A DNA stretch of 63,961 bases, filler included, from Malassezia furfur (taxonomy: Eukaryota): assembly GCA_052055015.1 (NCBI GenBank). It is 5 parts of 5 records of this genome, joined end to end, with 100 filler letters (N's around TTAATTAATTAA, not from the genome) between each part and the next. Parts side by side here need not be neighbours in the genome. Positions count along the whole stretch, not along the records: positions 55,297 to 63,961 come from JBQJIT010000451.1; 4 more parts are not named here. One strand, given 5' to 3'. Positions 13,747 to 63,961 of this stretch are shown in pieces (within the stretch, counting starts at the first letter, position 1; each line of letters opens with the position of its first letter). A program made the translations under genes and the position numbers. Under the pieces are notes generated by a model. That model was not told the origin of the DNA. It was given only the letters and a program-made list of their open reading frames with translations, and did no database searches.

Positions 13747-13846
13747 NNNNNNNNNNNNNNNNNNNNNNNNNNNNNNNNNNNNNNNNNNNNTTAATTAATT
13801 AANNNNNNNNNNNNNNNNNNNNNNNNNNNNNNNNNNNNNNNNNNNN
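13747..13846. other. Artificial contig-joining spacer N44-TTAATTAATTAA-N44
   Basis: The identical 100-nt spacer occurs four times; TTAATTAATTAA has stops in all frames. Confidence 0.98.
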
Positions 13847-27581: not shown

Positions 27582-27681
27582 NNNNNNNNNNNNNNNNNNN
27601 NNNNNNNNNNNNNNNNNNNNNNNNNTTAATTAATTAANNNNNNNNNNNNNNNNNNNNNNNNNNNNNNNNNNNNNNNNNNNN
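27582..27681. other. Artificial contig-joining spacer
   Basis: N44-TTAATTAATTAA-N44. Confidence 0.98.
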
Positions 27682-30600
27682 ACTTCAAGGACGTGCAGAT
27701 TGTCGACTTCCAAATGCCAAATGCTGACAAGGACGGAGGCATCGCTTTCTATGCTACCACACTGCTACGAAATCCGTCACCATTTGGCATGCAGCTGGGG
27801 AGGCTCGAGTTCGACCTGTATTACAACGGTCTCTTGCTCGGTCCGGCAGTCTCGCCGAACCTTAATCTGACGCCAAGTCTCAATCTGGTCAATCTCCAGG
27901 GCAGACTTATCTCTCATGCGGACAACCAAACTGCTTTGGGCATTCTGAGCGATTTGTTTACGCGCTACATCAATGGGGAAGTGTCCATGACATATGCAGT
28001 CGGACGGAATGTGACGACCCCCAGCGGCGAGACACCGAGCTGGTTGGGAGAAGGTATCCAGGCAATCAACATTGCTGTGCCGTTTAAGTCACCGATCCCG
28101 ATCAATCCCATTAAAAGTATTACAATCAAGCAGTTTAACCTGTCCTACTATGCTGACTCGAATCCTTATGGACCGACAGCCTCGTCGGACAGCTTAAGTG
28201 CGGAGATCGGTCTGCCGTTCGGTTTTCCGCTGAACATTGTCTCGGCCAAGAATGAGATCACGCTGGTGGACGACAAGACGAACACACCGATGGCAGTGGT
28301 TGATGGCGTGTATTCAAACTCGGAAACGCAGCTGGACATTGTTGCATCGGGGCAGACGGCGGGTACACTGTATCTGACGCTGAAGCCGTCGCTGATGCGG
28401 CTGCCCGAGCAGACGGATGCGGCACGGAAAGAGTTCCAGTACTTCCAAAAAGAGTTTGTCTTTTCAGGCAAGGACTCTAAGCTGTTCAACGGGTCGTCTG
28501 TGGCAGTTACAGACACACCTGTTGGTCGTATTGTACTAAATGGTATAAAATTCTCCGTCGAAAGTGGCTTGCTGGGTTTGCAAGGACTGAATCACTATCC
28601 CACGACTATCAACGGCGTGGATGTGATTGGTGGGACGAATGAGGGACTGAAGCTGGCGGTGAACACGACCATCATCAACCCGTCGAATGTCAATGTGCAA
28701 TCCGGTAACGTCACGCTGCTCTTCCTGAACCACGACGTGATTGGCAATGTATACCTCGAAAATTTGAACCTGGTGATTGGTGCGAACAACATTACGGCGA
28801 TTTCGACGTTCAGCCCTAAGGTGAGCCCGTATGGATACGAGACGCTGAACCGCTATGTGAGTGGTCTAGACACGCCGGTGAACATTTCGGGCTTTGAGGG
28901 TTCGACGCCGATCGACTCGCTGGTGCCGGCGTTCTCGGCGATGCGTCTCAATACAACGCTGGGTGGCCTAAAGACTGAGCTTGTGCAACAAGCCTCTTTA
29001 CAAGTCCTGAACACAACAGGTATTACAGACGACGTGGCGCACTCGATCGTGAGCCTCAACAATCCGTTCTCGGCGGGGCTGCAGATCACGCACATTTCGT
29101 CGAATGTGACGATGCACGGCATTTTCGTGGCTCAAATTGATACGGATTTGGATTTTTCAGCGGCTGGTAAGGCAGTGACGCCATCGCCAGAGATTCCACT
29201 ACACCTCAACCTGTATCCGCCGGACATGTTCGCATTGGTTCGCGCGTTAGCATTACAGGCAGGAGAGGATGTACGCCAATTGGATGGAATCGTCAAAATT
29301 GGTGGTTATACCTATTCAAAAACGACGTCCGCGAACAGTGATCGGAAACCTTCAAAACGTTCAATCGGTGAGGCAGAGCTGGCCGCTGAGGTTTTGGATC
29401 ACACACTAGTCAAGCGGAAAACGAACATGTATACCGGTTTCAACCTGCCCAACTTTATCGACAAAGCATTCTCGGTGGCGTCGGCCAACCTGGAGATCGT
29501 GTCGCAGACCAAAATGGGAGACTATTTGACGCCGATCACCTTCTCGCAACAAAACGTTCCGATGAAGACGGACAGCTCACTTAACTTGTTGCTCCCTGTT
29601 TTGGCGAAGCCAATCGTACAAAAGATCATCGATGGTTCAAATCTCGCTATTAACCGTGTAACCATTTTGAATCCTGCACAGAACAATTTCCGAGTGCACA
29701 TGATCGGTTCCATCACGAATGCTGGTCCATTTGATGCTGTGATCAGATTCACCCAGGGCTTACAACTCGCCTGGAACAATGAAGTTTTGGGACAGATTGC
29801 AATGCCCAATATTCAGCTCGCGGCCGAAGACGGCGCACAAATCGATTTGGAGGCTGAATTTGCGGTGAGAAATACCGACGCGCTCACCGAATTTACGAAG
29901 TTCTTGGTGACTGAACCGAGCTTTGTATGGGAGATCACGGGCGAGGGACTCGCTGTGGACGCACTTGGCACTACCACCTCGGATCTATCGATCTCGAAAA
30001 CAGTGATTTTGACAGGGTTTAATAACCTGAAGAACGCCGTCACAATCACCACCTACGATCTGCCTTCGAACGATCCAGCAGGGGGTATCCATTTGACTGC
30101 CGAGGCTACCATCCAAAACCCATCCCAGGTTGGTATTCAGCTGTCGCGATTTGGAACAACGGCGTGGCGCAACAACACGGATTTGGGTCCCGTTGCGGCG
30201 CAAGGCGAGTTTATTCTGCAGCCTCTATCACAGACAACGTTGCCGCTAGCCGGTCGTCTTCAACACCAAAACAATAATCATGGACTGGCTACCTTGTCTC
30301 AGACATTCACGGATGTGGTGCACGGAAAGACGATTCCGGTTCAAATCCACGGCGAATACGCAGGGCCGTCCGATGTAACATGGCTTAACGAGGGCATCAA
30401 GCTGCTGCAGATCTCGTCGCATCTCCCTGCCCGGCATTTCAACGTCATTAAGGCAATTGAGCTGAATGAGATGACGCTGATGTTTACGGAGAAGTCGGCA
30501 TGGGCTCCTGCGACAAGCTCGTCGAACACGCAGGCGCCATTCTACCTGCCGTTCAACTTCCCGATCGACATTACGCAGGCGGGGGGTGGGTTCATTGAAG

Positions 30601-33600
30601 GATATAAAGGCGCAGACGTGGCGCTTCTCAACATCCCCATGTCGCCTGCCGTGACCGATGTGGAGCGGCGCGTTATGACGCTCAAGTTTAGTGATGTGCC
30701 GATGCAGGCGTACGGGAATAAGCACGGGCAATTTTCTGGATTTTTGGCGGATACGACGGCACAAAAGAGTGTGACGTTCCAACTGCATGGGAGTGCTAAC
30801 TCGGTCGCGCGTACTGCCGCTGGAACGGTGACGATCACCGACATTCCGTTCGGTGTGACGACGTCGCTGGATGGTCTGCAGAATCTGAATGCTCGGCCAG
30901 TCGTGACGTCTGATCTGGACGTGAAGCATGGGTACAAGAGCTACCTTCTTATCACACTGAAGGCGTCTCTTTACAATCCCTCTCGCATTACTATTGGCAC
31001 TGGGGACGTTTCTTTTGCGCTAGGGTACACTGGACACCCGATTGGATCGGCTCAAATCTCGAACTTAGTTCTACATCCTGGCGTCAACAATATCTCCACC
31101 AACGTACATTATGCCCCGCATGGCTCAGTAAACGAAAGGGCGGGACAGCAATTGCTGGAGAACTACGTGCAAGGTGTCGTGTCTACAGCCAAGATTTCTG
31201 GGTCTCGGGACACGACACCGATCGCGTCGCTCAAGGAAGCTCTGTCCGGTATTCAGCTCTCGACGCAGATTCCGCCGCTGCACCAGCTGCTGATCATTGA
31301 GGCTAAGCTGGTCATCCCGAAGAACATTGCACAGACGTCTTTGGCGCAGTCGAGCTTCCAGCTGAAGAATCCGTTCACGGCATCAATCAACCTCCTCAAA
31401 GTCAATGCGAAGGCATCATACCAAGGCATCTATCTCGGTGTGATTGATCAGAACCTTTCGCCGCCGATCCGTGCCGATGGTCACACGACAATCACCTCGC
31501 GGACGCTGCCGCTCAAGATGGACCTCGACCCGAAGCACCTGATCCAGTTTGTGGAGAAGGCGGCGGCGAACACCAACACGGACCTTGGTCCGCTGACGGC
31601 GCAATTCAACAAGGTGATGGCGATGTCAAGCACCAAGACCACTGTGCGACCGTATCCGGACCCGAACCCACCGAGCTGGCACTCGGGACGTCAATTTGAT
31701 GTGTTTGGCGCGGTGCTGTCGCTACTGAAGGGCCTCGAGGTGACGTTGGACATTGAGTCGACGGTGAAGCTCGACGACTACGAGACCAAACTCAACTTCA
31801 AGCAGTCACCAGTGCCGACGGACACGGATCGTACTGCGCTGTACCTGATCGGACCCATCGGTGCGCCCATTGTACAAAACCTCGTGGACGGGGCGACGCT
31901 TTCGTTTTCGATGACGAACATCTCGAAGCTGCGGGACGATGGGTTCCATCTGGACTTGCAAGGCCAACTGCTGAATACGGGTCCGTTTGATGCACAAATC
32001 GAGTTCCCCGAGGGCGTCTCGGTTACATGGGAGGGGCAGAGCATCGCTACGATTCAGTTGCCTCCAATCCGAGCGTTTGCATATGAGGGCGTACCGAATT
32101 TGCGGACGACGGGCGAGTTGAAGATCACGAACCAGGGAGGCTTCACCAAGTTTGCGACGTACATCCTGCACAATTCCGACTTTACGTGGACGATCAGCAC
32201 GAATAAACTGCGTGTGCGGGCGCTGAACATTGTGTTTGACGACGTGAAGATCAGCAAGACGCTGCATTTCAAGGCGTTCAATGGGCTGCCCGGTGTGAAT
32301 ATTACGTCGTTTGATATACCTGGGGAGACGTCGAATGCGCTGAAGATTACAACCGGTACGACGATTCCGTCGCCGGCGACGCTCGGCATTGACCTGGAGA
32401 CCGCCAATTTCAAGATCTACTTTGAGAACCAGTATGTGGGCCCTGCGCATTCGACCAACCTCTTTTTGTGCGGGTTGTCTACAACGTCCGCGTTGTTGCA
32501 CGGGTTTATTACGCACAAAAGCGGTAATGCTGAAATCCAAGCGACTGGCAAGCTGTTTTCACAATACTTGCAAGGGAAGAACAGCGATCTAAGTGTCCGG
32601 GGCGACAGTGTGGTGACGCGCGAGAATGGTAACAAACCCGTGGGCTGGTTGTCGAAAGCGTTTAGGTCGCTTACATTGGATGTCGTCTTGCCTGGGCACA
32701 TCTACAAGATTGTGTACTCTGTGACAATTTCCGATCTGTTTGTCACAGTGATGGAGCAGGCGGACACATGGGCACCGCGCACTGGTTCAAATCAGTCTGT
32801 TGCTCTGTACGCAAACCCACTGCATTTTACGTTGACGCCGCTGAAAGCGTCGCTCACTTCGCAGTTGCTCTACAACAATGGCGTGGCTGCACATCTCAAC
32901 ATTCCGTTGCGCACGGTACGGGCCGGTACATCGCACGGCCCTAACGAGCATCGTCCATTGATTATGTCGTGGAAGAGTGAGCGGATGGTCGCCGAAGACC
33001 GTACAGCCTTCACGGCGATGCTTTCCAAAATCCTCGACACTTCCCGAGCGACAATAGGCCTGACGGGCAGCGCGGGGCTGGTGGGCAAGACGGTGATCGG
33101 CAACATTCCGATCGACGGTATCCCCTTTAATGTAAGCACAAGTCTGGCGGGTCTCGATTCGTTCACGGGCAAGACGACACTGAAGCGGCTCGACATTTAC
33201 CACGGGACGCCAGAGTACCTGGACAACAAAGTGCAGCTTGTTTTGACGAATCCAAGCAACATTACAGTGCATACAACCGGCATCTCCTTGCCGAATTTCT
33301 ACAAGAACACGTACATTGGGCGCGCACTGCTGGGCGAGAAAATCATTGCGCCGGGCGACAACCACTTTGATGGCATCGTGCGGTACCAGCCCAACAATCC
33401 CAACGATACCGTCGCACAAGAACTGCTGCAGCGCTATGCGCAGCCACAACAAGGCCATGGGGCCGTGAGCATTCCATACGAGACGCCTGTGGTGATCAAA
33501 GGCCTCGCGAATGCCGACCCGCCGCTCTCGCCATTTGCGTCTCTCACACCGGGCTTGGAACAGCTGTACCTTACTAGCACGCTGCCAGGCATCGCTGTGC

Positions 33601-34451
33601 GTGTGTTGAACCAGATCGACGCATTCTTTGATGTGCTGACGCTGTTTGCCGCGCCAGGCCTGCGCCCGTACATTTATATTGCGCTTACGTTCCGCAATGA
33701 TCTCCCTGTCTCGCAAACGTTCCAGCGTATCCAGTGTGATGCTTTCGAGGCCGGCACGCAGAGCCCGGTGCAGGCATCCTTCACGGAAAACCATGTGACA
33801 AACTGTCGCATTCCGGCCGCGTCCGCGACCAAAGTCAACCCTAAATTCCACAAGTGTGACCGGATTTACCACGTCCTGGGCAACCAAGGCCTGCTCGGGT
33901 CACTTCCTACGATCGGCAAGAACCTCGACGTGCACAACCTCGTGGAGGTCATGCTGGACGACAATGGCTACGTGAATCCTGGCTTCCACTTCAACGAAGA
34001 AGATGTCCTCACCACCTACTCGGTTGCGATCGGAAACACGGTGATCGCCAACATCACCTCGATCGAAGACATGATTGAGGGTATCTTGGGCGCCCTTCCC
34101 AAGCTGACCACCAGCGAGCTGGAAAAGATCACCGACGGGTTTGCCAAGCTCGGCACCGAAGGCATCCTGCAGCTCGCGGAGTCCAAGTGGAAACAGGTGG
34201 TCTGTGCGCTGGACAAGCTCCCTCTCACGCTCATTCACACGGCCGACTGCAGCACTAGCTCGGCGGCAGGTAAGGTCGCTGCTTCCTCCAGAAGCGCCAG
34301 TAATTTGCGCGCCAGCAGCGCATCGTCTGCAAGCACCAAGGTGCGCATCTCGCCCAAGGCGAGCGCCAACTCGTCGCCAGCGTCGAGCGCACATGCTTCT
34401 TCTTCGGCGGCCTCGCAGGCCGCCTCTTCCAATTCGCGCAAGCCCCGGTAA
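27682..34451 (+). CDS. Giant DUF3712 / LEA-2-like repeat protein (Tag1-related), 5' truncated, >2250 aa
   Basis: Repeated beta-rich units NPSPFGMQLG, NPSNVNVQSG, NPSQVGIQLS, NPSRITIGTG, NPSNITV; duplicated GSITNAGPFDAVIRF / GQLLNTGPFDAQIEF; S/A-rich tail. Family assigned from motif recall. Confidence 0.75.
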
Positions 34452-41406: not shown

Positions 41407-41506
41407 NNNNNNNNNNNNNNNNNNNNNNNNNNNNNNNNNNNNNNNNNNNNTTAATTAATTAANNNNNNNNNNNNNNNNNNNNNNNNNNNNNNNNNNNNNN
41501 NNNNNN
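41407..41506. other. Artificial contig-joining spacer
   Basis: N44-TTAATTAATTAA-N44. Confidence 0.98.
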
Positions 41507-51744: not shown

Positions 51745-52164
51745 ATGGCCGAGGACTCCGCAAAGTACCAGGGGCGCTGCCTCTGCGGCAGCGTTCAGTT
51801 TACGGTTGAGCAGGCGTTGAAGCAGATTCAGCTTTGCCACTGCAAGCAATGCCAAAGATCCACAGGGACGGCATTTGCGTCCAACATCCCTATCGCGAAA
51901 TCCAACTTTCACATCCAGAGCGGGGCTGATCTTATTGCGTCCTATGAGTCAACCCCCGGGAAACTGCGCAAGTTTTGCAGCCAATGCGGCTCGCCCGTCT
52001 ACAGCGAGCGTGCCACTGCACCAGACGAAATCCGCATACGCGCAGGAACGCTTGACGGCGACCTCGATGCCAGGCCCGTATTCCACTTCTATGTGGAGGA
52101 CATGCCCAATTGGTGCTCCATCAACGACGACCTGCCACAATATCCTCAAGCACGGCCTAACTAG
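51745..52164 (+). CDS. GFA / CENP-V / Mss4-like zinc-binding protein
   Basis: GRCLCGSV, CHCKQCQR, FCSQCGSP, RAGTLD; intronless, 139 aa. Confidence 0.88.
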   Translation: MAEDSAKYQGRCLCGSVQFTVEQALKQIQLCHCKQCQRSTGTAFASNIPIAKSNFHIQSGADLIASYESTPGKLRKFCSQCGSPVYSERATAPDEIRIRAGTLDGDLDARPVFHFYVEDMPNWCSINDDLPQYPQARPN

Positions 52165-55196: not shown

Positions 55197-55296
55197 NNNN
55201 NNNNNNNNNNNNNNNNNNNNNNNNNNNNNNNNNNNNNNNNTTAATTAATTAANNNNNNNNNNNNNNNNNNNNNNNNNNNNNNNNNNNNNNNNNNNN
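55197..55296. other. Artificial contig-joining spacer
   Basis: N44-TTAATTAATTAA-N44. Confidence 0.98.
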
Positions 55297-55400
55297 AACC
55301 TGGCATAGTTTCATAGCTCCACGACGTTCAACCGTATGCATCACGTGGCGCACAGAAGAACGCAGGGTGGAGGCGCCAAAGAGGCGTGGCGCGTCGGACC

Positions 55401-58400
55401 ATGAGCGCGCGACTGTGGGGCACCGTGCCCGCCCGCCTAAGTGTCGCACCTGCGGCAGCGCGCACACGCGCCGTGTGCACCACCGCATGCATCCTGCGCC
55501 AGCACCCGGCGCGCGCGCGGCCGCGCTCGCCATCACGCACCAACGACACGCCCAAGGAGCCGCGCCGCAACGCGCAGCGGCCCAACGGGCGGCCCCCGCT
55601 CACCCTCGCCCCCGAAGACCTCGTCCACGAAGACGCAGAAGACGACAAGGTTGCGGAGCAGCTCGACTACAACGTCACCATCGGCGCGTCCGCCTCCAAG
55701 ATGGAGGACATCCAGCCAGGCGACTTTGTCGAGGTGCGCCGCACGGGCCGGACGTTCTCGGGCGTCGTGCTTCCCATCCCGGACGAGCACGACCGCTCGG
55801 GGTCGGGCGCCGGCGCATCGCTCGCGGTCGTCGTCATCTCGGGCGTGCTCGAGCTGGTGCGCTCGACCGACGTCATGCTCCGCTTCCCGGCGTTTGTCGA
55901 CCGGCAGCTCGCTGTGGACGCCGCGCCGCTCAAGCGCGACTACGTCGCAGCGTCCACAGCGCGCGTATCGGCGGCTCCCGTGGCGCTCCCGGACGAGCTC
56001 GCCGTGTCGCACGAGGACATGCTCGCGCTGCGCCAGAGCGCCAGCCGCGACAATTCGTACATGGAGCAGGAGCCGCTCGACTTGCCCCGCTTTGAGAAGC
56101 GCGCGTGGATCTGCCGGAAAATCCGCCAGCTCCAGCGCAAGACGGACAACGAGATCCAAAAGATATACCCGGCGTTCCGTGCCCTGTTCCTCCAGGAACA
56201 GACCGAGGCGCATGTCGACTTTGACTGGACGGGGCACGAACAGGCACCCGAGCACGCCTTCCTGCGCAAGGGGCTCAAGCTCCTACACCGCGGCAGTTTT
56301 ACGACAATCGAGGCGACGCAGCTCCTCACCCAGTACCTCGCCTTCCTGCGCCAAGAAAAGGCCGGCGTCAAGCATCGCTTCCTTGGCGAGACAGTCTTTG
56401 CAATGCACACGCTCTTTATGAACCACCCGAAACAGTTCCTCGTGGACTCGACGACGCACCGGCACAGCCAGATGTTCACCTACCGCTCGCTAAGGGAGCA
56501 GGAGATCCTCTCGCGCGTCTCTGCATGGGTCCGTGCGAGCATGACGGCACAAGGACCGGGGGGTATGGAGGATGCCTCTGTGAAGGACGACGTGGAGCTC
56601 ATGGACGCGGTCGAAATTCTGGACGGTTTCTGTGCGCGCGCCAGGGCGGCCATCGGCTGGCACGAGGCCCAGGCAGAGACGGTAAGCGACCACATCCAAG
56701 CATTGGAGCAGCCCACCACCGCCGAGGGCGACGCGGTTCAGTGGACGGCGACGGACAAGGACATCATCGAGTTCCTCAAGATCAGCGTCGGGAACCGCCG
56801 TGAGCTGCAAGAAGATCCCACGGGCAGCGTTGCCATGTCTATCATCAAACGTGTCGGCGCGCACATTCATCTTAAGCCGATCGTCCACCCCGCGATGGAG
56901 CAAGTGCCGCTCCCCAGCTCCGTCCTATCCACGACGGTGGAGCAGCCGCCGCTGAGTGACACGAGCACAAGTGTGTACTCGGCGGGAACCGATCTTCAGC
57001 ATGCCCTGGTGTTCAACTTTTTGATCCGCCTGGGTGCCTTGACCCCATGGGAGGACCCGAATGTCTTGGACACCTACCTGAGGAACATTGAGGAAAACGC
57101 AAACGAAACCGCTGTGCACGATGCCAGGCACCGTCGTACACTCCAGCTCAATCAGGAGGAGGAGGCTCGGAGGACGCGGTTCGAGAACCTGCCTGTCTAT
57201 GTGATTGACTCGGCGAATGCACACGAGCTGGACGATGGAATTTCAGTGGAGCCTGCAGGCAAAGACACATACTGGATCCATGTTCACATTGCCGACCCCA
57301 CGGCCCGCATTCCACGCAACCACCCCTTGGCGGTCGAGGCGAGGCAAAAGTATTCCAGCATCTACTTCCCGCAGGCCCAGTGGCCGCTGTTCCCCGATTT
57401 CGCAACCTACAATGGAATGAGCTTGAAGGGAAACAGCAGCGAGACAGGCCCAGAGCAGCAAGTCTTGACGTTCAGTGCTCTGGTCACAGACCAGGGCGAA
57501 ATCCGTGACTTCGACGTGCGGCCGTGCGCCGTGCGAAATGTGCGGACGCTGAGCTACGAAGATGTGAACCAGTTCTTCCTGACGAAAAAGGGCCCAAGCA
57601 ACCCCGAGTCGGCTCTGCACCTGGAGTCGACGCAGCGAAACCTGCAGCTGCTTGCGCAACTGGCGTCCAAGCTGAACTCACGAAGGATCACAATCGGCAA
57701 AGGAGTCAATGCGACCAACCAGTCCTCGGAAGTGACCGTGTCGCCCTTGCCGCTTCCTTCGCTGGCCGCGACGCATCCGGATAGCCCAGCATTCTTCACT
57801 GGATTCCCCGACATCCAAATGACCCTGACTGATCCAAGCTCGCCGTTGAAGCCAGGCACCTTTGATGGGCTGCCAGGCGGCATCTCCTCGGAAAACATGG
57901 TCAGTGAGATGATGCTACTGGCCGGTCGCGTCGCTGCAAGCTTTTGCGACGAGCACGAAATTCCTATGCCCTACCGCTGCCAGGATGCACCAGAGGCGGA
58001 CCAAGTGGCCGCCATTGAGCATTTGAAGCACCCCATCACGGGGGCCCTGCCTGTCGTTGAGCTTCAGAAACGGGACATCTTTTTGTCGCCCGCCTATTTC
58101 TCATCTCAGCCTGGGAAGCACTACGGCCTCGGGATTGGCGTGAATGACATCGCTAACACTGATCCGAACGTGCTCAAGGCAGGTGGGTATGTGAGGGTGA
58201 CCAGTCCGCTGCGGCGGTATGCGGATCTGCTGTCGCATTATCAAATGAAGGCTTTCATGTTTGGAAAGAAGACGCTCTCGCGTGGCGATCTGGTGTTCCA
58301 GTTCCCCCGCTTTGAGAGAATGGAGTCATGGGTGAAACAGATTGAACGCGCTTCTCATCGGTACTGGGTGTGGACCTACGTTGACCGACTCCTTGCTAAG

Positions 58401-58691
58401 GCTAAGCAGTATGGACCACCCGAGACAGCCAAGGCTGGCCTGTTCTCGGACATGGATAAACACATCCTCGGAACCATTCCTGCTTTCGTCGGTGTTCCCG
58501 ATGTTCGTTTTACCTACGACACGCTTCAGGCACGTATCCGTGTCAACCTTCAAACTCTCGGAGGGTTCCCAGTGGATTGCATTTGGGACCCCCAGACCCC
58601 TGCACCTCCACGTGGAGAGATCCTTCAAGTGCGAATCCAAGAAACCGTCAGCGCTGGAACCAAGCGCTCAATTATTTGCGAACTAGCATAA
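55401..58691 (+). CDS. DSS1: Mitochondrial RNase II/RNB exoribonuclease (Dss1/Cyt-4-like)
   Basis: YVIDSANAHELDDGIS, HVHIADPT, MVSEMMLLAG, YVRVTSPLRRYADLLSH; R-rich presequence. Confidence 0.85.
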   Translation: MSARLWGTVPARLSVAPAAARTRAVCTTACILRQHPARARPRSPSRTNDTPKEPRRNAQRPNGRPPLTLAPEDLVHEDAEDDKVAEQLDYNVTIGASASKMEDIQPGDFVEVRRTGRTFSGVVLPIPDEHDRSGSGAGASLAVVVISGVLELVRSTDVMLRFPAFVDRQLAVDAAPLKRDYVAASTARVSAAPVALPDELAVSHEDMLALRQSASRDNSYMEQEPLDLPRFEKRAWICRKIRQLQRKTDNEIQKIYPAFRALFLQEQTEAHVDFDWTGHEQAPEHAFLRKGLKLLHRGSFTTIEATQLLTQYLAFLRQEKAGVKHRFLGETVFAMHTLFMNHPKQFLVDSTTHRHSQMFTYRSLREQEILSRVSAWVRASMTAQGPGGMEDASVKDDVELMDAVEILDGFCARARAAIGWHEAQAETVSDHIQALEQPTTAEGDAVQWTATDKDIIEFLKISVGNRRELQEDPTGSVAMSIIKRVGAHIHLKPIVHPAMEQVPLPSSVLSTTVEQPPLSDTSTSVYSAGTDLQHALVFNFLIRLGALTPWEDPNVLDTYLRNIEENANETAVHDARHRRTLQLNQEEEARRTRFENLPVYVIDSANAHELDDGISVEPAGKDTYWIHVHIADPTARIPRNHPLAVEARQKYSSIYFPQAQWPLFPDFATYNGMSLKGNSSETGPEQQVLTFSALVTDQGEIRDFDVRPCAVRNVRTLSYEDVNQFFLTKKGPSNPESALHLESTQRNLQLLAQLASKLNSRRITIGKGVNATNQSSEVTVSPLPLPSLAATHPDSPAFFTGFPDIQMTLTDPSSPLKPGTFDGLPGGISSENMVSEMMLLAGRVAASFCDEHEIPMPYRCQDAPEADQVAAIEHLKHPITGALPVVELQKRDIFLSPAYFSSQPGKHYGLGIGVNDIANTDPNVLKAGGYVRVTSPLRRYADLLSHYQMKAFMFGKKTLSRGDLVFQFPRFERMESWVKQIERASHRYWVWTYVDRLLAKAKQYGPPETAKAGLFSDMDKHILGTIPAFVGVPDVRFTYDTLQARIRVNLQTLGGFPVDCIWDPQTPAPPRGEILQVRIQETVSAGTKRSIICELA

Positions 58692-59081
58692 ATATAAATG
58701 AATTAGATATTTACATTACGTTCAATAATAAACACAATAGATAATATTGAGTTCTTATAAGTTAAAAATATTGTATAAAGTATTTAAATTATAATTGACC
58801 AAAATAATATATATTAACAAATAGGAATATATTATAAACGTTAATATTTATATGAATCAATATTGTCATAATACATAATAATCATGTTTATTAAATTTGT
58901 TTTCTGTTTTATATAATTTATAAGTTACTTAAAAATGATTATTGTTTAACTGAATGTGTTTTAACATATAATAACGTTTATTGTTATTACTTTAATCATG
59001 TTTGCTATCATGTTTAAAATTTTATAAAATAAATATGTTTTATTTTGCCTCATCTAAATGATTCCTTCATTTATTTCTTTG
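58692..59081. other. Extremely AT-rich intergenic island, candidate centromere core
   Basis: Hand count of about 63 G+C in 390 nt (~16% GC) against roughly 60-70% in most of the window; lies between convergent genes; flanking codons also lose GC. Confidence 0.75.
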
Positions 59082-60359
59082 TTACATATTTTGGAAATAA
59101 ATACTTGCTGCAATATCCGTATTCCCATCGCTTGCAGTTAATAATTGAATTGCAAGATTTCGGTCGATGCCCAGGTTGGTTAGGGTGGTGATGGTCTCTT
59201 CCGACCACGTGCTGGGCTTGGCAGCTTGGGAGGGAGGTGGCTTGGCCGGCGTAGTAGAGGGTGCAGCGGGTTGACGCAAGGTGCTCCCCCCACTGGTGGA
59301 TGCTTGCTCGGCACTCTTGGACTCGCTGTTGGATTCGTGCTCCGGATCCGTGAGATGGTTCTTGGGTAGCTCATGTTCGGGCAGGAATGGAATCACCTTT
59401 TCATTGATAACGAGGGCATTCTTCTGAAGATCAATGTTGGCTTGGTAGCGTTTGAGCATGTCCAGTCCAAAGAGCATGTCGACACTGGATCCCTGCGTAG
59501 GTTAGTATCGCGCGCCCAGGCAACCAAAGTACATACCTCGAGTACCGTAAAGGCACAGGGCAGGAAGAGGTCGCCGCCCAGTTGGATCTGGGTGCTGTGC
59601 ACGCGTCCCAGGATTTTGGCCGTGCCTACACCCTTTGCCACGCCCGAGAAGCGCTTGTCAAGCAGACGCATGATCCCGCAGCGCTCGGCACACTCCGGGC
59701 TGATGATGGTGGCCTGTGCGCCGCTGTCAACGAACGCCTTCACGGGGTGGTCGTTGACCTTGAGATCGACATAGAGCATGGTGACGTTGCCGAACGCCTC
59801 TGGTGTGTACTCCATGGCGTGTTCCATATTCTCGGCAATCTGTTCCTGCCGAATGGCCTCTTCGATGCGTTTTTGCGCCTCGACGTCGAAAGGGTCCGAG
59901 TTGGCGAGCTGCTGCAGCGACTGCACCTGGCTGAGCTGCTCGCGCTGGTGTGCGAGGGTGCGTGCAAAGGCCTCTTGGGACTCCATGGCGGCTTCCAGCA
60001 AGGCGGGGTTGCTCTGAGGTCAGACAAGTCGGACGTACCGCGCGCAGTTGGTTCTGGAGCGCGACCGAGCCGCGGATTTGGGCGCGCACGGCCTCGGCCA
60101 TGGCGGCATCCGTGTCCGGTGCGCTGGGCGGGGCGTGCTGGCGCGTGTCTTGGAGGAGGATCAGGTCGCCGTCCTGCACGCCGTACGCCGAGAGCGATTT
60201 CTGCGCGTCGGTGAGGGGCGCATTTTGGAAGAGGAGCTGCTGGTGCGCCGCAGGCACCTCGGTGTCGGCCTCGACGACCGCCTTGAAGTTTTCGACCTCG
60301 ATCGACGCGTCTACGTCGAACGCAAATGTGTTCTGCTGTGCGTCTACGACGGTGAGCAT
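59082..60359 (-). CDS. DDI1: Ddi1 (UBL, retroviral-like aspartyl protease, UBA); introns 60038-60014 (25), 59536-59493 (44)
   Basis: [48 protein letters not shown]-terminal UBA. Confidence 0.93.
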
Positions 60360-60458
60360 CGTGGGAGTAGCCGAACGCGTCGCGTCGAGCTGACGCGGCC
60401 TGTGCGTCAGCCTCCACTGGACGAGCGGCGGCCGCACGTGGCGTGGCGAGGAGCGTCC

Positions 60459-63365
60459 ATGAGCCGTTCGCGCGAAGCACGTCGCGCCGCTGCGCGCAGT
60501 GCGGCGGCGCAGTATCTGGCGCCGACGCCGTTCCTGGGCTATGGTGACGAGTCGGTGCGCCGCCGTCCGAATGGTGAAGACGACGACGCGCCGCGTCTGA
60601 GCGACCGGCACTGGGAGGACGAGGAAGAGGACGAGGCCGACGTCGACCGCGACTGGTACCTGCGCGACGACGACGGAGGCGTGGCCGGCGATGCCGACCA
60701 TAATCCGTTTGCGCAGTACGAGGATATGCCCGGCGAAGTGTCGCGCACGATCGCGAAGCGGCACGAGCGCATCACGGCGCGCCAGGCGGCGTACCGCGCG
60801 GACGCCGACGCCTGGGAGACGAACCGGATGCAGACGGGCGGCGTGGGCGGCCCGCGTGTGCTGGACGACGACCCCGACGAGCACGGGGACGACCGTGTGC
60901 ACCTGATGGTGCACAACCTGCGCCCCCCCTTTTTGGATGGCAAGACGGTGTATACCAAGCAGATTGCGCCGGTCAATCCGGTGCGCGACCCGACGGCGGA
61001 CATGGCCGTGTTTGCGCTGAAAGGCAGCCGGCTCGTCAAGGAGCACCGCGAGCGGGCCGAGCGGGCAAAGGCGGCGGGCCGCGTTGCGTCGCTCAAAGGC
61101 ACGCAGCTCGGCAAGATTATGGGCGTGAAGGAGGACGAGGAGGAGGGTGCGCAGAGCCAGATCGACCCCGCGGAGGACGAGGGGAAGGGCGACTCGCGCT
61201 ATGCGACGCACCTCGCGAAGAAGCAGCGCGGCCTGTCCAAGTTTAGCCGGAGCAAGTCGCTGCGCGAGCAGCGGCAGTACCTGCCCGCGTTTGCGAGCCG
61301 GGACGATCTGATGCGCACCATCCGGGAGAACCAGGTGGTGGTGGTGATTGGCGAGACGGGCAGCGGCAAGACGACGCAGCTGTGCCAGTTCCTGCACGAG
61401 GACGGCTACACCGAGTATGGGCTGATTGGGTGTACGCAGCCGCGTCGTGTCGCGGCGATGAGCGTCGCGAAGCGGGTGAGCGAGGAGATGGAGTGTGAGC
61501 TCGGCAGCACGGTCGGCTACTCGATCCGGTTCGAGGACTGCACGAGCAAGGATACCAAGATCAAGTACATGACCGACGGTGTGATGCTGCGCGAGTCGCT
61601 GACCGAGCGCGACCTGGACCGCTACTCGGCGATCATCCTCGACGAGGCGCACGAGCGGTCGCTGAACACGGACGTGCTGATGGGCCTGCTGAAGAAAGTG
61701 CTGGCGCGGCGGCGCGACCTGAAGCTGATTGTGACGTCGGCCACGATGAACGCCGAGGGCTTTTCGCGGTTCTTTGGCGCGGCGCCCATCTTTACGATCC
61801 CCGGGCGCACGTTCCCCGTGGATGTGCTGTTCAGCAAGACGCCGTGTGAGGACTATGTGGACAGCACTGTGCGGCAGATCCTCTCGATCCACCTCGGCCA
61901 GGGCGCCGGCGGCGACATTCTCGCGTTCATGACCGGGCAGGAGGACATTGAGGTGACGTGCGAGGTGGCCATGGAGCGGCTGAAGCAGATCGACGATGCG
62001 CCGCCGCTGCTCATGCTGCCGATCTACTCGCAGATGCCTGCGGATTTGCAGGCGCGCATCTTTTTGCCGTCCGAGCACGGCGAGCGCAAGTGCATTGTCG
62101 CGACCAACATTGCCGAGACGTCGCTGACCGTCGATGGCATCATGTTTGTCGTGGACGCGGGGTACAGCAAGCTGAAGCTGTACAACCCGCGCGTGGGTAT
62201 GGACTCGCTGCAGATCACGCCGATCAGCCAGGCGAATGCGTCGCAGCGCTCCGGGCGCGCCGGGCGCACCGGGAGCGGCACGGCGTACCGCCTGTACACG
62301 GAGAATGCGTTCCACCACGAGATGTTCCCCGCGACGATCCCCGAGATCCAGCGGACGAATCTGGCGAACACGGTGCTGCTGCTCAAGTCGCTCGGGGTGA
62401 AGGACCTGCTCGACTTTGACTTTATGGACCCGCCGCCGCAGGACAACATCCTGAACAGCATGTACCAGCTGTGGGTGCTTGGCGCGCTGGACAACCTCGG
62501 GAACCTGACGCCGCTCGGGAAGCGCATGAGCGAGTTCCCCATGGAGCCGAGTCTCGCCAAGATCCTCATCATGAGCGTCGAGTACGGGTGCTCCGAGGAG
62601 TTGCTCACGATCGTGAGCATGCTGAGTGTGCCGACCGTCTTTTACCGCCCCAAGGAGCGCCAGGAGGAGAGCGACGCGGCGCGCGAGAAGTTCTACGTGG
62701 CCGAGAGCGACCACCTGACGCTGCTGCACGTGTACGCGCAGTGGAAGAACCACGGGTACAAGGACGCGTGGTGCAACCAGCACTTTTTGCACGGCAAGCT
62801 GCTGCGCAAGGCGCGCGAAGTGCGTGCGCAGCTCACCGACATCATGCAGTCGCAGCGCCTGCCGCTCCAGTCGTGCGGCACCGACTGGGACATTGTGCGC
62901 AAGTGCATCACCTCGGGCTACTTCCACCAGGCCGCGCGCGTGAAGGGCATCGGCGAGTACGTGCACTGCCGCACGGGCATCCCGATGAACCTGCACCCCA
63001 CGAGCGCGCTGTACGGCCTGGGCTACACGCCCGACTATGTCGTGTACCACGAGCTGACGCTCACCTCGAAGGAGTACATGGGCACGGTCACCGCTGTCGA
63101 CCCGTACTGGCTCGCGGAGCTCGGCGGGGCGTTCTACTCGATCCGCGAGCGCCATGCGCTCGGCACGACCGGGCGCCGCGGGCGCGACACGCAGCTGGGG
63201 CATGCCGTCGAGCTCGAGGCGCAGTTTGAGCGCGACCGGCAGCGGGCCGGGGAGGAGGAGAACGCGAAGAAGCGCAAGACGAATGCGCACCCCGGCGGCA
63301 TGCGGCACGGCATTGCGGTGCCGGGCCTCGCGCCGAAGCGCGGCCGCCGCGTAGGCTTCCGGTAG
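60459..63365 (+). CDS. PRP16: Pre-mRNA splicing DEAH helicase Prp16/DHX38
   Basis: WETNRM, LKPPFLDG-like [43 protein letters not shown]. Confidence 0.92.
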
Positions 63366-63408
63366 ATAGGTAAGGTGGAGGCAATCGGGCCATTTTCTTC
63401 GGACCGGC

Positions 63409-63961
63409 ATGTCGGCGTGGGGAGCGCACACGAGCGGGCCGTTGCAGCCCGTGCTGGAGCTGCCCGAGCGCGTGGGCGCGGTGCAGTGCAGCGCCGCGCC
63501 GCTCGCCAAGACGCTCGTGGCCGTCGGTAGGTCGTGGCGGCGCTGACGCAGCGACGGAGCACAGCGTGTTTGTGTATACGACGCACGTCGACGGCACGCG
63601 CCTCGCGCTGCACCGCGTCGCGTCGTTCCTCGTCGGCGCGCGCGCAGCAGCGCTGGCGTTCAGCCCCGGCGCACAGTATGGCCAGGAGGACGGCGTGGTC
63701 CGCATCGAGTGCGTCGCGCGTACGGCTGACACAGACTCCTCGCGGCTGTGGGGGACGAGCTGCGCCTGCTCACGGCGACGCACGACACCGCGTCGAGCGC
63801 CGTGCTCGGCACGGCCGGCGCGCGCATCGGCGACCTTGCGTGGTGCGCCGCGCCGGGGTACGAGCAGTACGTCGCGGTGGGCTGCGACGACCACGCCGTG
63901 CAGCTGTGGGACCTCGAGCCGGCGCACGGCGGGCGCGCGGCCGCCGCGCGCGTGCTGCGTG
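63409..63961 (+). CDS. WD40-repeat protein (possibly Nup37-like), 3' truncated; introns 63527-63551 (25), 63709-63734 (26)
   Basis: The spliced frame stays open and gives IGDLAW..YVAVGCDDHAVQLWDL; both introns have GT donors, CTGAC branch points and CAG acceptors. Confidence 0.6.

Follow-up and report, generated by a model that had tools for sequence, protein, structure and literature searches.

Outward sequence polarity in the AT-rich centromere cores of Malassezia furfur, a probable footprint of replication origins

Introduction

An AT-rich island in the genome of Malassezia furfur carries short GTTT-containing words which point to the right in its right half and to the left in its left half. 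This raises the question whether the words form an array of protein-binding sites that gives a centromere its sequence specificity, as an earlier note on this DNA had proposed, or whether their orientation has another source. For the centromeres of this genus, the passages on sequence motifs in Sankaranarayanan et al. (2020; PMC7025860) describe a 12-bp AT-rich motif that shows no orientation bias and has no known function. The island is part of the window analyzed here, a stretch of 63,961 nucleotides in which five contigs are joined by runs of N around a 12-base spacer (13747-13846, 27582-27681, 41407-41506 and 55197-55296). Contigs across these joints are not real neighbours in the genome, and the contiguous DNA around the island comprises 55297-63961 only.

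Results

The island is a GC trough between two genes, surrounded by DNA of 55-70% GC. One published MfCEN1 primer matches positions 58983-59009 on the minus strand with 27 of 27 bases, and the second matches 58797-58823 on the plus strand with 26 of 27 (primer sequences from PMC7025860, supplementary file 1). Since both primers match, the island corresponds to a centromere core that is already known, and the earlier note was right in assigning it to a Malassezia centromere. Judged by its sequence, it is the core of the short regional centromere MfCEN1, with CENP-A binding taken from the reference strain, for which the ChIP-qPCR section of PMC7025860 reports CENP-A enrichment of all seven predicted M. 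furfur cores. The features of the locus are as follows:

58688..59103, no strand: M. furfur CEN1 core, 416 bp, 16% GC, intergenic, recognized by composition and by matches to the MfCEN1 ChIP-qPCR primers
58797..59009, no strand: stretch between both published MfCEN1 primers, the CENP-A-enriched amplicon in PMC7025860
55401..58691, plus strand: left flanking gene, RNB-domain exoribonuclease, transcribed towards the core, stop at 58691
59082..59986, minus strand: 3' exons of the right flanking gene, aspartyl protease with a UBA-like domain, transcribed towards the core, stop at 59082
60459..63365, plus strand: gene for a DEAH helicase, pointing away from the core, with outward-strand G/T excess at synonymous sites

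The RNB-domain gene and the aspartyl-protease/UBA gene thus converge on the island; we take the former to be Dss1-like and the latter to be Ddi1-like. The core contains no tandem array and no long direct or inverted repeats, its repeats being short, imperfect and at most 21 nt long, and the island has zero matches to Rfam families. Elsewhere in the window, an open frame on the plus strand (27684-34448, 2255 codons) contains six DUF3712 stretches; its GC content of about 52% is below that of its surroundings, and it has a strong bias of G over C at four-fold sites. A small intronless gene of the GFA family (glutathione-dependent formaldehyde-activating enzyme) lies at 51745-52164 on the plus strand.

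All 12 words listed in the earlier note are present in the core. The 9-mer ATCATGTTT starts at 58881, 58995 and 59007, YGTTTW occurs on the plus strand at 58898, 58905, 58943, 58957, 58975 and 59036, and words of the reverse type lie in the left half at 58729, 58814 and 58835. The comparison with dinucleotide shuffles that the note had suggested came out in its favour, as YGTTT was found 11 times on both strands against 3.8 expected (5000 shuffles of 58690-59110, P=0.0008). As for its remark that many of the scarce G and C bases fall in these words, 17 of the 47 G/C bases of 58729-59040 lie in the 80 of 312 bases covered by them. Against local 80-bp shuffles of the CEN1 core, 10 outward GTTT stand against 1 in the opposite direction, with 3.5 and 1.8 expected. 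The orientation by halves is therefore a real bias which survives shuffling, but the note had omitted counter-examples in both halves: TTAACA at 58961 and AAC at 58948 and 58973 on the right, and GTT at 58720, 58751, 58761 and 58840 on the left. The two arms and the sign change between them are:

58688..58884, minus strand: left arm, A-rich on the plus strand (95 A, 72 T), with GTTT on the minus strand at 58730 and 58836
58885..59103, plus strand: right arm, T-rich on the plus strand (111 T, 71 A), with nine GTTT on the plus strand between 58886 and 59040
58864..58904, no strand: approximate sign change of the A/T skew, best estimate 58884 (permutation P=0.0035), position imprecise

The genome (13.7 Mb) was searched for further cores by AT-run patterns, primers and flank homology, the island search being non-exhaustive. 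This yielded 11 cores at seven independent loci, with two copies each of CEN1-4 and one each of CEN5-7. Seven distinct cores match the seven published primer sets, and four of them have a second copy in this fragmented assembly; the CEN1 region is present in two diverged copies. This agrees with PMC9040865, where M. furfur hybrids are described with a parental divergence of about 10%. No second copy of CEN5, CEN6 or CEN7 was found in the genome, and the single-copy state of L053 (CEN5), L054 (CEN6) and L046 (CEN7) would fit a hybrid that has lost heterozygosity or entire chromosomes, or a collapse of the copies in the assembly. Two hits of 56 and 42 bp (L029 and L032) were dropped as they form no island, and one hit on contig C770 lies outside the core set. 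Also dropped were the long, AT-rich contigs C86 and C480 (L040-L043, 26-30% GC), which were taken as mitochondrial and reused as a control.

Homeologous cores have flanks that are 82-91% identical. Nevertheless, for the cores of CEN3 and CEN4 the alignment within a pair is no better than that of shuffles, and for CEN1 it is weak. Core lengths are matched within pairs (L047/L048 416/403, L051/L052 265/263, L056/L055 477/466 and L049/L050 455/472 bp). This suggests that the cores undergo very fast substitution while their length is retained. Among 80 metagenome loci, an island scan gave six that contain all or part of an orthologous core; a seventh stopped too soon. The one whole metagenome core that was tested, L058 (duplicated by L061), is an orthologous core from another species, in which the published M. 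slooffiae CEN1 primer sites were recognized by eye. A third lineage is represented by a partial orthologous core beside the Ddi1-like gene (L057, 4818-5024, and L063); this core is A-rich with several AAAC by eye, and the contig stops inside it.

With these cores at hand, the 9-mer could be followed beyond CEN1, where its copies lie as follows:

58881..58889, plus strand: ATCATGTTT copy 1, local to this allele
58995..59015, plus strand: ATCATGTTT copies 2 and 3, 12 bp apart, a probable short tandem duplication

A 9-mer with at least two G/C bases occurs three times in 1.3% of shuffles (P=0.013), whereas without the G/C condition a three-fold 9-mer is not unusual (68% of shuffles, P=0.68). None of this genome's 10 other cores contains the exact word; four of them have five one-mismatch hits between them, and the word is missing from the homeologous CEN1. 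The pattern ATCATGTTTW has 24 matches genome-wide against 16 for the reversed control pattern, and only two of the 24, both in the CEN1 core, sit in an AT island. Repeated 9-mers number 6 in the other ten cores with 3.0 expected; together with the 12-bp distance between two of the ATCATGTTT copies, this makes local duplication a plausible source. The trio is thus a local accident, plausibly due in part to duplication, and we rejected ATCATGTTT as a common centromere motif on account of its absence from the other cores and the homeolog and its genome-wide copies outside the islands. As to recurrence in other islands, which the earlier note had asked about, the orientation bias recurs and the 9-mer does not.

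These results bear on the proposal of that note that a quasi-symmetric array of sites for a forkhead-type or ATCATGTTT-binding protein gives the centromere its sequence specificity. Three exact 9-mers in one core are above chance (P=0.007-0.013), the genome has a forkhead gene (2 matches), and the forkhead consensus RYAAAYA is found 59 times in total against 43 expected (P=0.018). This excess is, however, unoriented (31:28) and due to TAAATA, while no enrichment was seen for RYAAACA (13 vs 9.2, P=0.14). Neither the loss of the 9-mer in the homeolog and all ten other cores nor the position of 22 of the 24 ATCATGTTTW matches outside AT islands would be expected of such an array, and forkhead-type sites were not conserved between homologous centromeres. 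A single point-like element common to all centromeres was likewise not found across the 11 cores. Moreover, a local binding array does not account for a polarity which, as described below, is common to all A-tract words and reaches the synonymous sites of flanking genes. We therefore regard this array as a very improbable source of specificity.

Read from the edge to the centre, the 11 cores contain 2507 A and 1928 T. All A-tract words lean the same way, with ratios of 80:30 for AAAC, 63:22 for CAAA, 49:15 for GAAA and 172:77 for AAAA. All 11 cores have a positive A/T skew (mean +0.130). Of 91 intergenic regions used as controls, 33 have one (P=3e-6); these controls have 54-59% GC and are thus not composition-matched to the cores. 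Permutation of the switch point gave P<0.05 in 10 of the 11 cores; the switch lies at a relative position of 0.36-0.71 along the core. The homeologous cores of CEN3 and CEN4 retain the polarity though they cannot be aligned beyond shuffles, and the metagenome core L058 is polarized too, with 0 of 2000 permutations as strong. G/C skew inside the cores is weaker than in the flanks and, pooled by halves, near zero (552 vs 558; tight cores 403 vs 363). As regards other words, the 11 cores have a deficit of AATT, ATTAA and five-A runs and an unoriented surplus of AAATA and TAAATA.

Chance or an assembly artefact in very AT-rich DNA could be suspected, given that a half-and-half binomial test falls below 0.05 in only 6 of the 11 cores taken singly and that the word was chosen after the sequence had been seen. 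The equal sign in all cores, the switch-point permutations and the polarity of an independent metagenome contig argue against it. So do two further results: the GTTT test out of sample in the ten other cores, given below, and the 11 AT-rich windows of mitochondrion-like contigs, in which AAAC shows no excess (38 vs 35). On this evidence the polarity is extremely unlikely to be accidental.

The flanking genes are convergent at CEN1 and CEN2, probably also at CEN6, divergent at CEN3 and CEN4 and tandem at CEN5 and CEN7, as called by our own ORF model; the right-hand gene of CEN7 has no Pfam match. The polarity is identical whichever way these genes point. This is of interest for an explanation by transcription, in which the core would be a two-way terminator (an A-rich signal followed by a U/GU-rich element) or a bidirectional promoter from which outward transcripts would introduce a mutational bias. 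The convergent genes at CEN1 and an enrichment of AATAAA in the cores (65 vs 46, P=0.006) would fit it. The AATAAA excess is, however, not oriented beyond composition (P=0.34), and the polarity does not change between divergent and tandem genes. Besides, ordinary intergenic regions lack the polarity (positive in 4 of 16 convergent, 12 of 24 divergent and 17 of 51 tandem controls), for which reason gene ends were rejected as the source of the core skew. The skew in the flanks, moreover, tracks where a gene lies with respect to the core, whichever way that gene is transcribed. Transcription is thus an improbable cause.

In addition to the general polarity, a surplus of GTTT is left over. In the tight cores (n=11), 69 outward GTTT stand against 42.5 expected from local 80-bp dinucleotide shuffles (1.6-fold), and 19 inward GTTT against 16.9. 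The word had been picked out by the earlier note in CEN1; without that core, the outward to inward ratio in the remaining ten is 59:18 with 39:15 expected (P at most 0.006), so that the outward excess holds out of sample. AAAC was second among all 4-mers under arm-wise shuffles (family-wise P=0.010), and AAAG, CAAA and GAAA showed no excess over local dinucleotide shuffles in the cores. On the outward strand, G precedes T-runs more often than C does (69:27), compared with 96:100 in 82 AT-rich control windows. No extended motif was found around the 69 outward GTTT (largest flanking chi-square 7.7 over 20 positions), nor was any periodic or helical spacing. A GTT-specific excess is absent from the flanking genes (odds ratio 1.33 vs 1.43 overall), and L058 by itself has no significant GTTT excess (10 vs 9.2). 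The surplus amounts to about 27 over 11 cores, or 2-3 per core, and may reflect context-dependent mutation of AT-rich DNA or a weak selected element. The published 12-bp motif may also have GTTT at its core.

A selected polarity would go further. Outward GTTT and the A-left/T-right tracts would then form a degenerate, redundant code for a kinetochore protein or a chromatin remodeler, for example by confining a CENP-A nucleosome between two nucleosome-free zones on its outer sides, with the sites turning over and the layout being kept. The GTTT excess and orientation beyond local shuffles, in and out of sample, the lack of a similar excess for the other three words and the preference for G before T-runs are in line with such a code. 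So are the enrichment of the published 12-bp motif over a scrambled matrix, reported in the motif section of PMC7025860, and the arrangement described for budding yeast in part of PMC4212969, where poly-A is followed by poly-T with a less depleted middle and nucleosome-free regions outside. On the other hand, there is zero information beyond the 4-mer and no regular spacing, runs of five A are too few (74 vs 123), and the metagenome core on its own has no significant excess. The code also leaves unexplained a synonymous-site skew 1-8 kb away. As the explanation of the array we consider it rather unlikely, although it can coexist with a replication origin.

This skew was measured at four-fold degenerate sites within 5 kb of the cores, corrected for codon family and counted on the outward strand, against 54 pseudo-centres. 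The outward strand has a G excess of +0.050, positive at 11 of 11 loci and at 7 of 7 independent loci (P=0.0002); at the pseudo-centres it is 0.000+-0.030, with 27 positive. In genes transcribed away from the core the excess is +0.053 and in genes transcribed towards it -0.048. As the sign is opposite in the two groups, the effect follows position and not transcription. The G excess stays level up to 5 kb and drops to +0.035 at 5-8 kb; further out than 8 kb, where only three loci contribute, its sign is negative. T excess on the outward strand is weaker and noisier (+0.044; 9 of 11 loci; 5 of 7 independent loci, P=0.049).

Within 6 kb, and for few genes, four-fold sites have 11% A+T in away-running genes and 21% in both towards-running genes and controls. 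Because away-running genes are GC-richer, the skew was retested after matching GC at four-fold sites. G then remained at +0.046 (11 of 11 loci; P=0.0013 for the seven independent loci) and T at +0.035 (10 of 11 loci; 6 of 7 independent, P=0.029), and the GC-matched test of G per gene gave P=0.003 for 18 away-running against 12 towards-running genes. The effect thus persists, and GC3 was rejected as its source. In L058 the flank comprises only three exons and is uninformative.

Discussion

The AT-rich island is a centromere core whose polarity is found in all 11 cores analyzed in this genome, does not depend on gene direction and extends to the synonymous sites of neighbouring genes, while the individual sites turn over. 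Since this pattern is like the one described at Candida and Yarrowia centromeres, a constitutive replication origin is the most likely reading. The oriented array would then probably be, in the main, the footprint of such an origin, lying within or beside each of the Malassezia cores, and we infer the origin to be the cause of both the polarity and the flank skew. An origin of this kind would long have been active at the centromere in the majority of cell cycles, with forks leaving the core both ways and strand-biased mutation raising the T and G content of both leading strands. In the left arm of CEN1 the minus strand would be leading, and in the right arm the plus strand. In a core of 84% AT, the bias would give A-tracts and AAAC on the left and T-tracts and GTTT on the right, with a flip near 58884, which is the predicted origin position. 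As the core turns over fast, individual words would be gained and lost, whereas its length, AT content and polarity would be maintained.

The origin and the selected code might also be combined. Centromere-origin units of about 450 bp would then have an identity that is written partly as direction and not as consensus: head-to-head A-tracts and outward GTTT would be selected, read by a kinetochore protein or remodeler, place CENP-A over the origin and be renewed by the strand-biased mutation of that origin, in a self-reinforcing loop that would also be the meaning of the published motif. We put this forward as a speculation that is, taken as a whole, unlikely to be right.

The CEN1 locus is already known, and so is the reversal of skew at centromeres of ascomycete yeasts (PMC2924309, PMC8262905). 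For Malassezia, the word 'skew' occurs nowhere in the main text of PMC7025860, its preprint (10.1101/533794), PMC10410736 or PMC5389616. In the full texts searched, which comprise few of the subscription papers and theses and neither figures nor preprint supplements, we found no report of skew, polarity or an origin for the centromeres of this genus. The motif section of PMC7025860 states the function of the motif as an open question, along with 'no orientation bias'. Measured from the core centre, the orientation is strong, and it reaches into the flanking genes as the footprint of an origin does. If the origin is confirmed, the link between centromeres and origins in ascomycetes would extend to the smallest basidiomycete centromeres, and active, dead and relocated centromeres of the genus could be called independently of composition. 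It would also offer a cause for the centromere breakage that drives karyotype change in Malassezia. Furthermore, it predicts that a core may give a plasmid both an origin and a centromere; according to a statement in PMC7025860, no plasmid exists for Malassezia.

CEN1 agrees with the published Malassezia cores in being AT-rich, intergenic, shorter than 1 kb and without long repeats, and it is itself the published MfCEN1 locus. In contrast to the published motif with its lack of orientation bias, the orientation here reverses at the centre of every one of the 11 cores. Because of this flip, the bias averages out if strands are counted per centromere only.

In the parts of de Boer and Hughes (2014; PMC4212969) that deal with tract orientation, oriented poly(dA:dT) tracts are described as cues for remodelers. 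The order of A-tract and then T-tract in Malassezia equals the yeast arrangement with an occupied middle and depleted outer sides described there. The direction of remodeling differs between yeast and mammals. Perhaps the GTTT surplus acts on remodelers by analogy with such tracts. Unlike remodeler-cue tracts, however, most of those in the Malassezia cores have a length of 3-4, and there are fewer runs of five than expected.

The cores also share AT-rich, strand-asymmetric DNA with the landing sites of ORC in budding yeast. Of the 9-mer ATCATGTTT, the ATGTTT part resembles the ARS consensus of S. cerevisiae. An ARS-like 11-mer was not enriched in the cores (7 vs 3.7, P=0.09) and has the opposite orientation; an origin of the S. 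cerevisiae ARS type was rejected, as the 11-mer is unenriched and the T-rich side does not come first. The Orc4 copy examined, one of two in the genome, has no AT-hook match. For early origins of Y. lipolytica, 10.64898/2026.03.10.710760 gives T-rich DNA 5' and A-rich DNA 3' of the core motif. The layout of the Malassezia cores is the reverse of this order, so that it looks like a mutational trace rather than a landing pad for ORC.

The closest likeness is to the centromeres analyzed by Koren et al. (2010; PMC2924309). The sections of that paper on C. albicans describe G and, to a lesser extent, T on the leading strand with a reversal at the origin, ORC bound at the skew switch, and a pattern kept without sequence conservation. 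In Y. lipolytica, the same source describes AT skew and a GC drop without GC skew, and it suggests that the pattern is peculiar to small regional centromeres. Centromere-proximal constitutive origins with skew reversal have been described for C. albicans, C. dubliniensis, C. lusitaniae, Lodderomyces and Yarrowia lipolytica in the relevant passages of PMC2924309 and PMC8262905. Malassezia differs from this group in that it is a basidiomycete, in its core of about 0.3-0.5 kb with 13-19% GC, in a GC skew that is found mainly at the synonymous sites of flanking genes, and in that its pattern is known here from sequence alone. Nevertheless, its centromere regions have the same outward excess of G and T with a change of sign at the centromere, their AT skew and GC trough resemble those of Y. 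lipolytica, and, as in C. albicans, the pattern is kept without sequence conservation, both between homeologous pairs and in L058.
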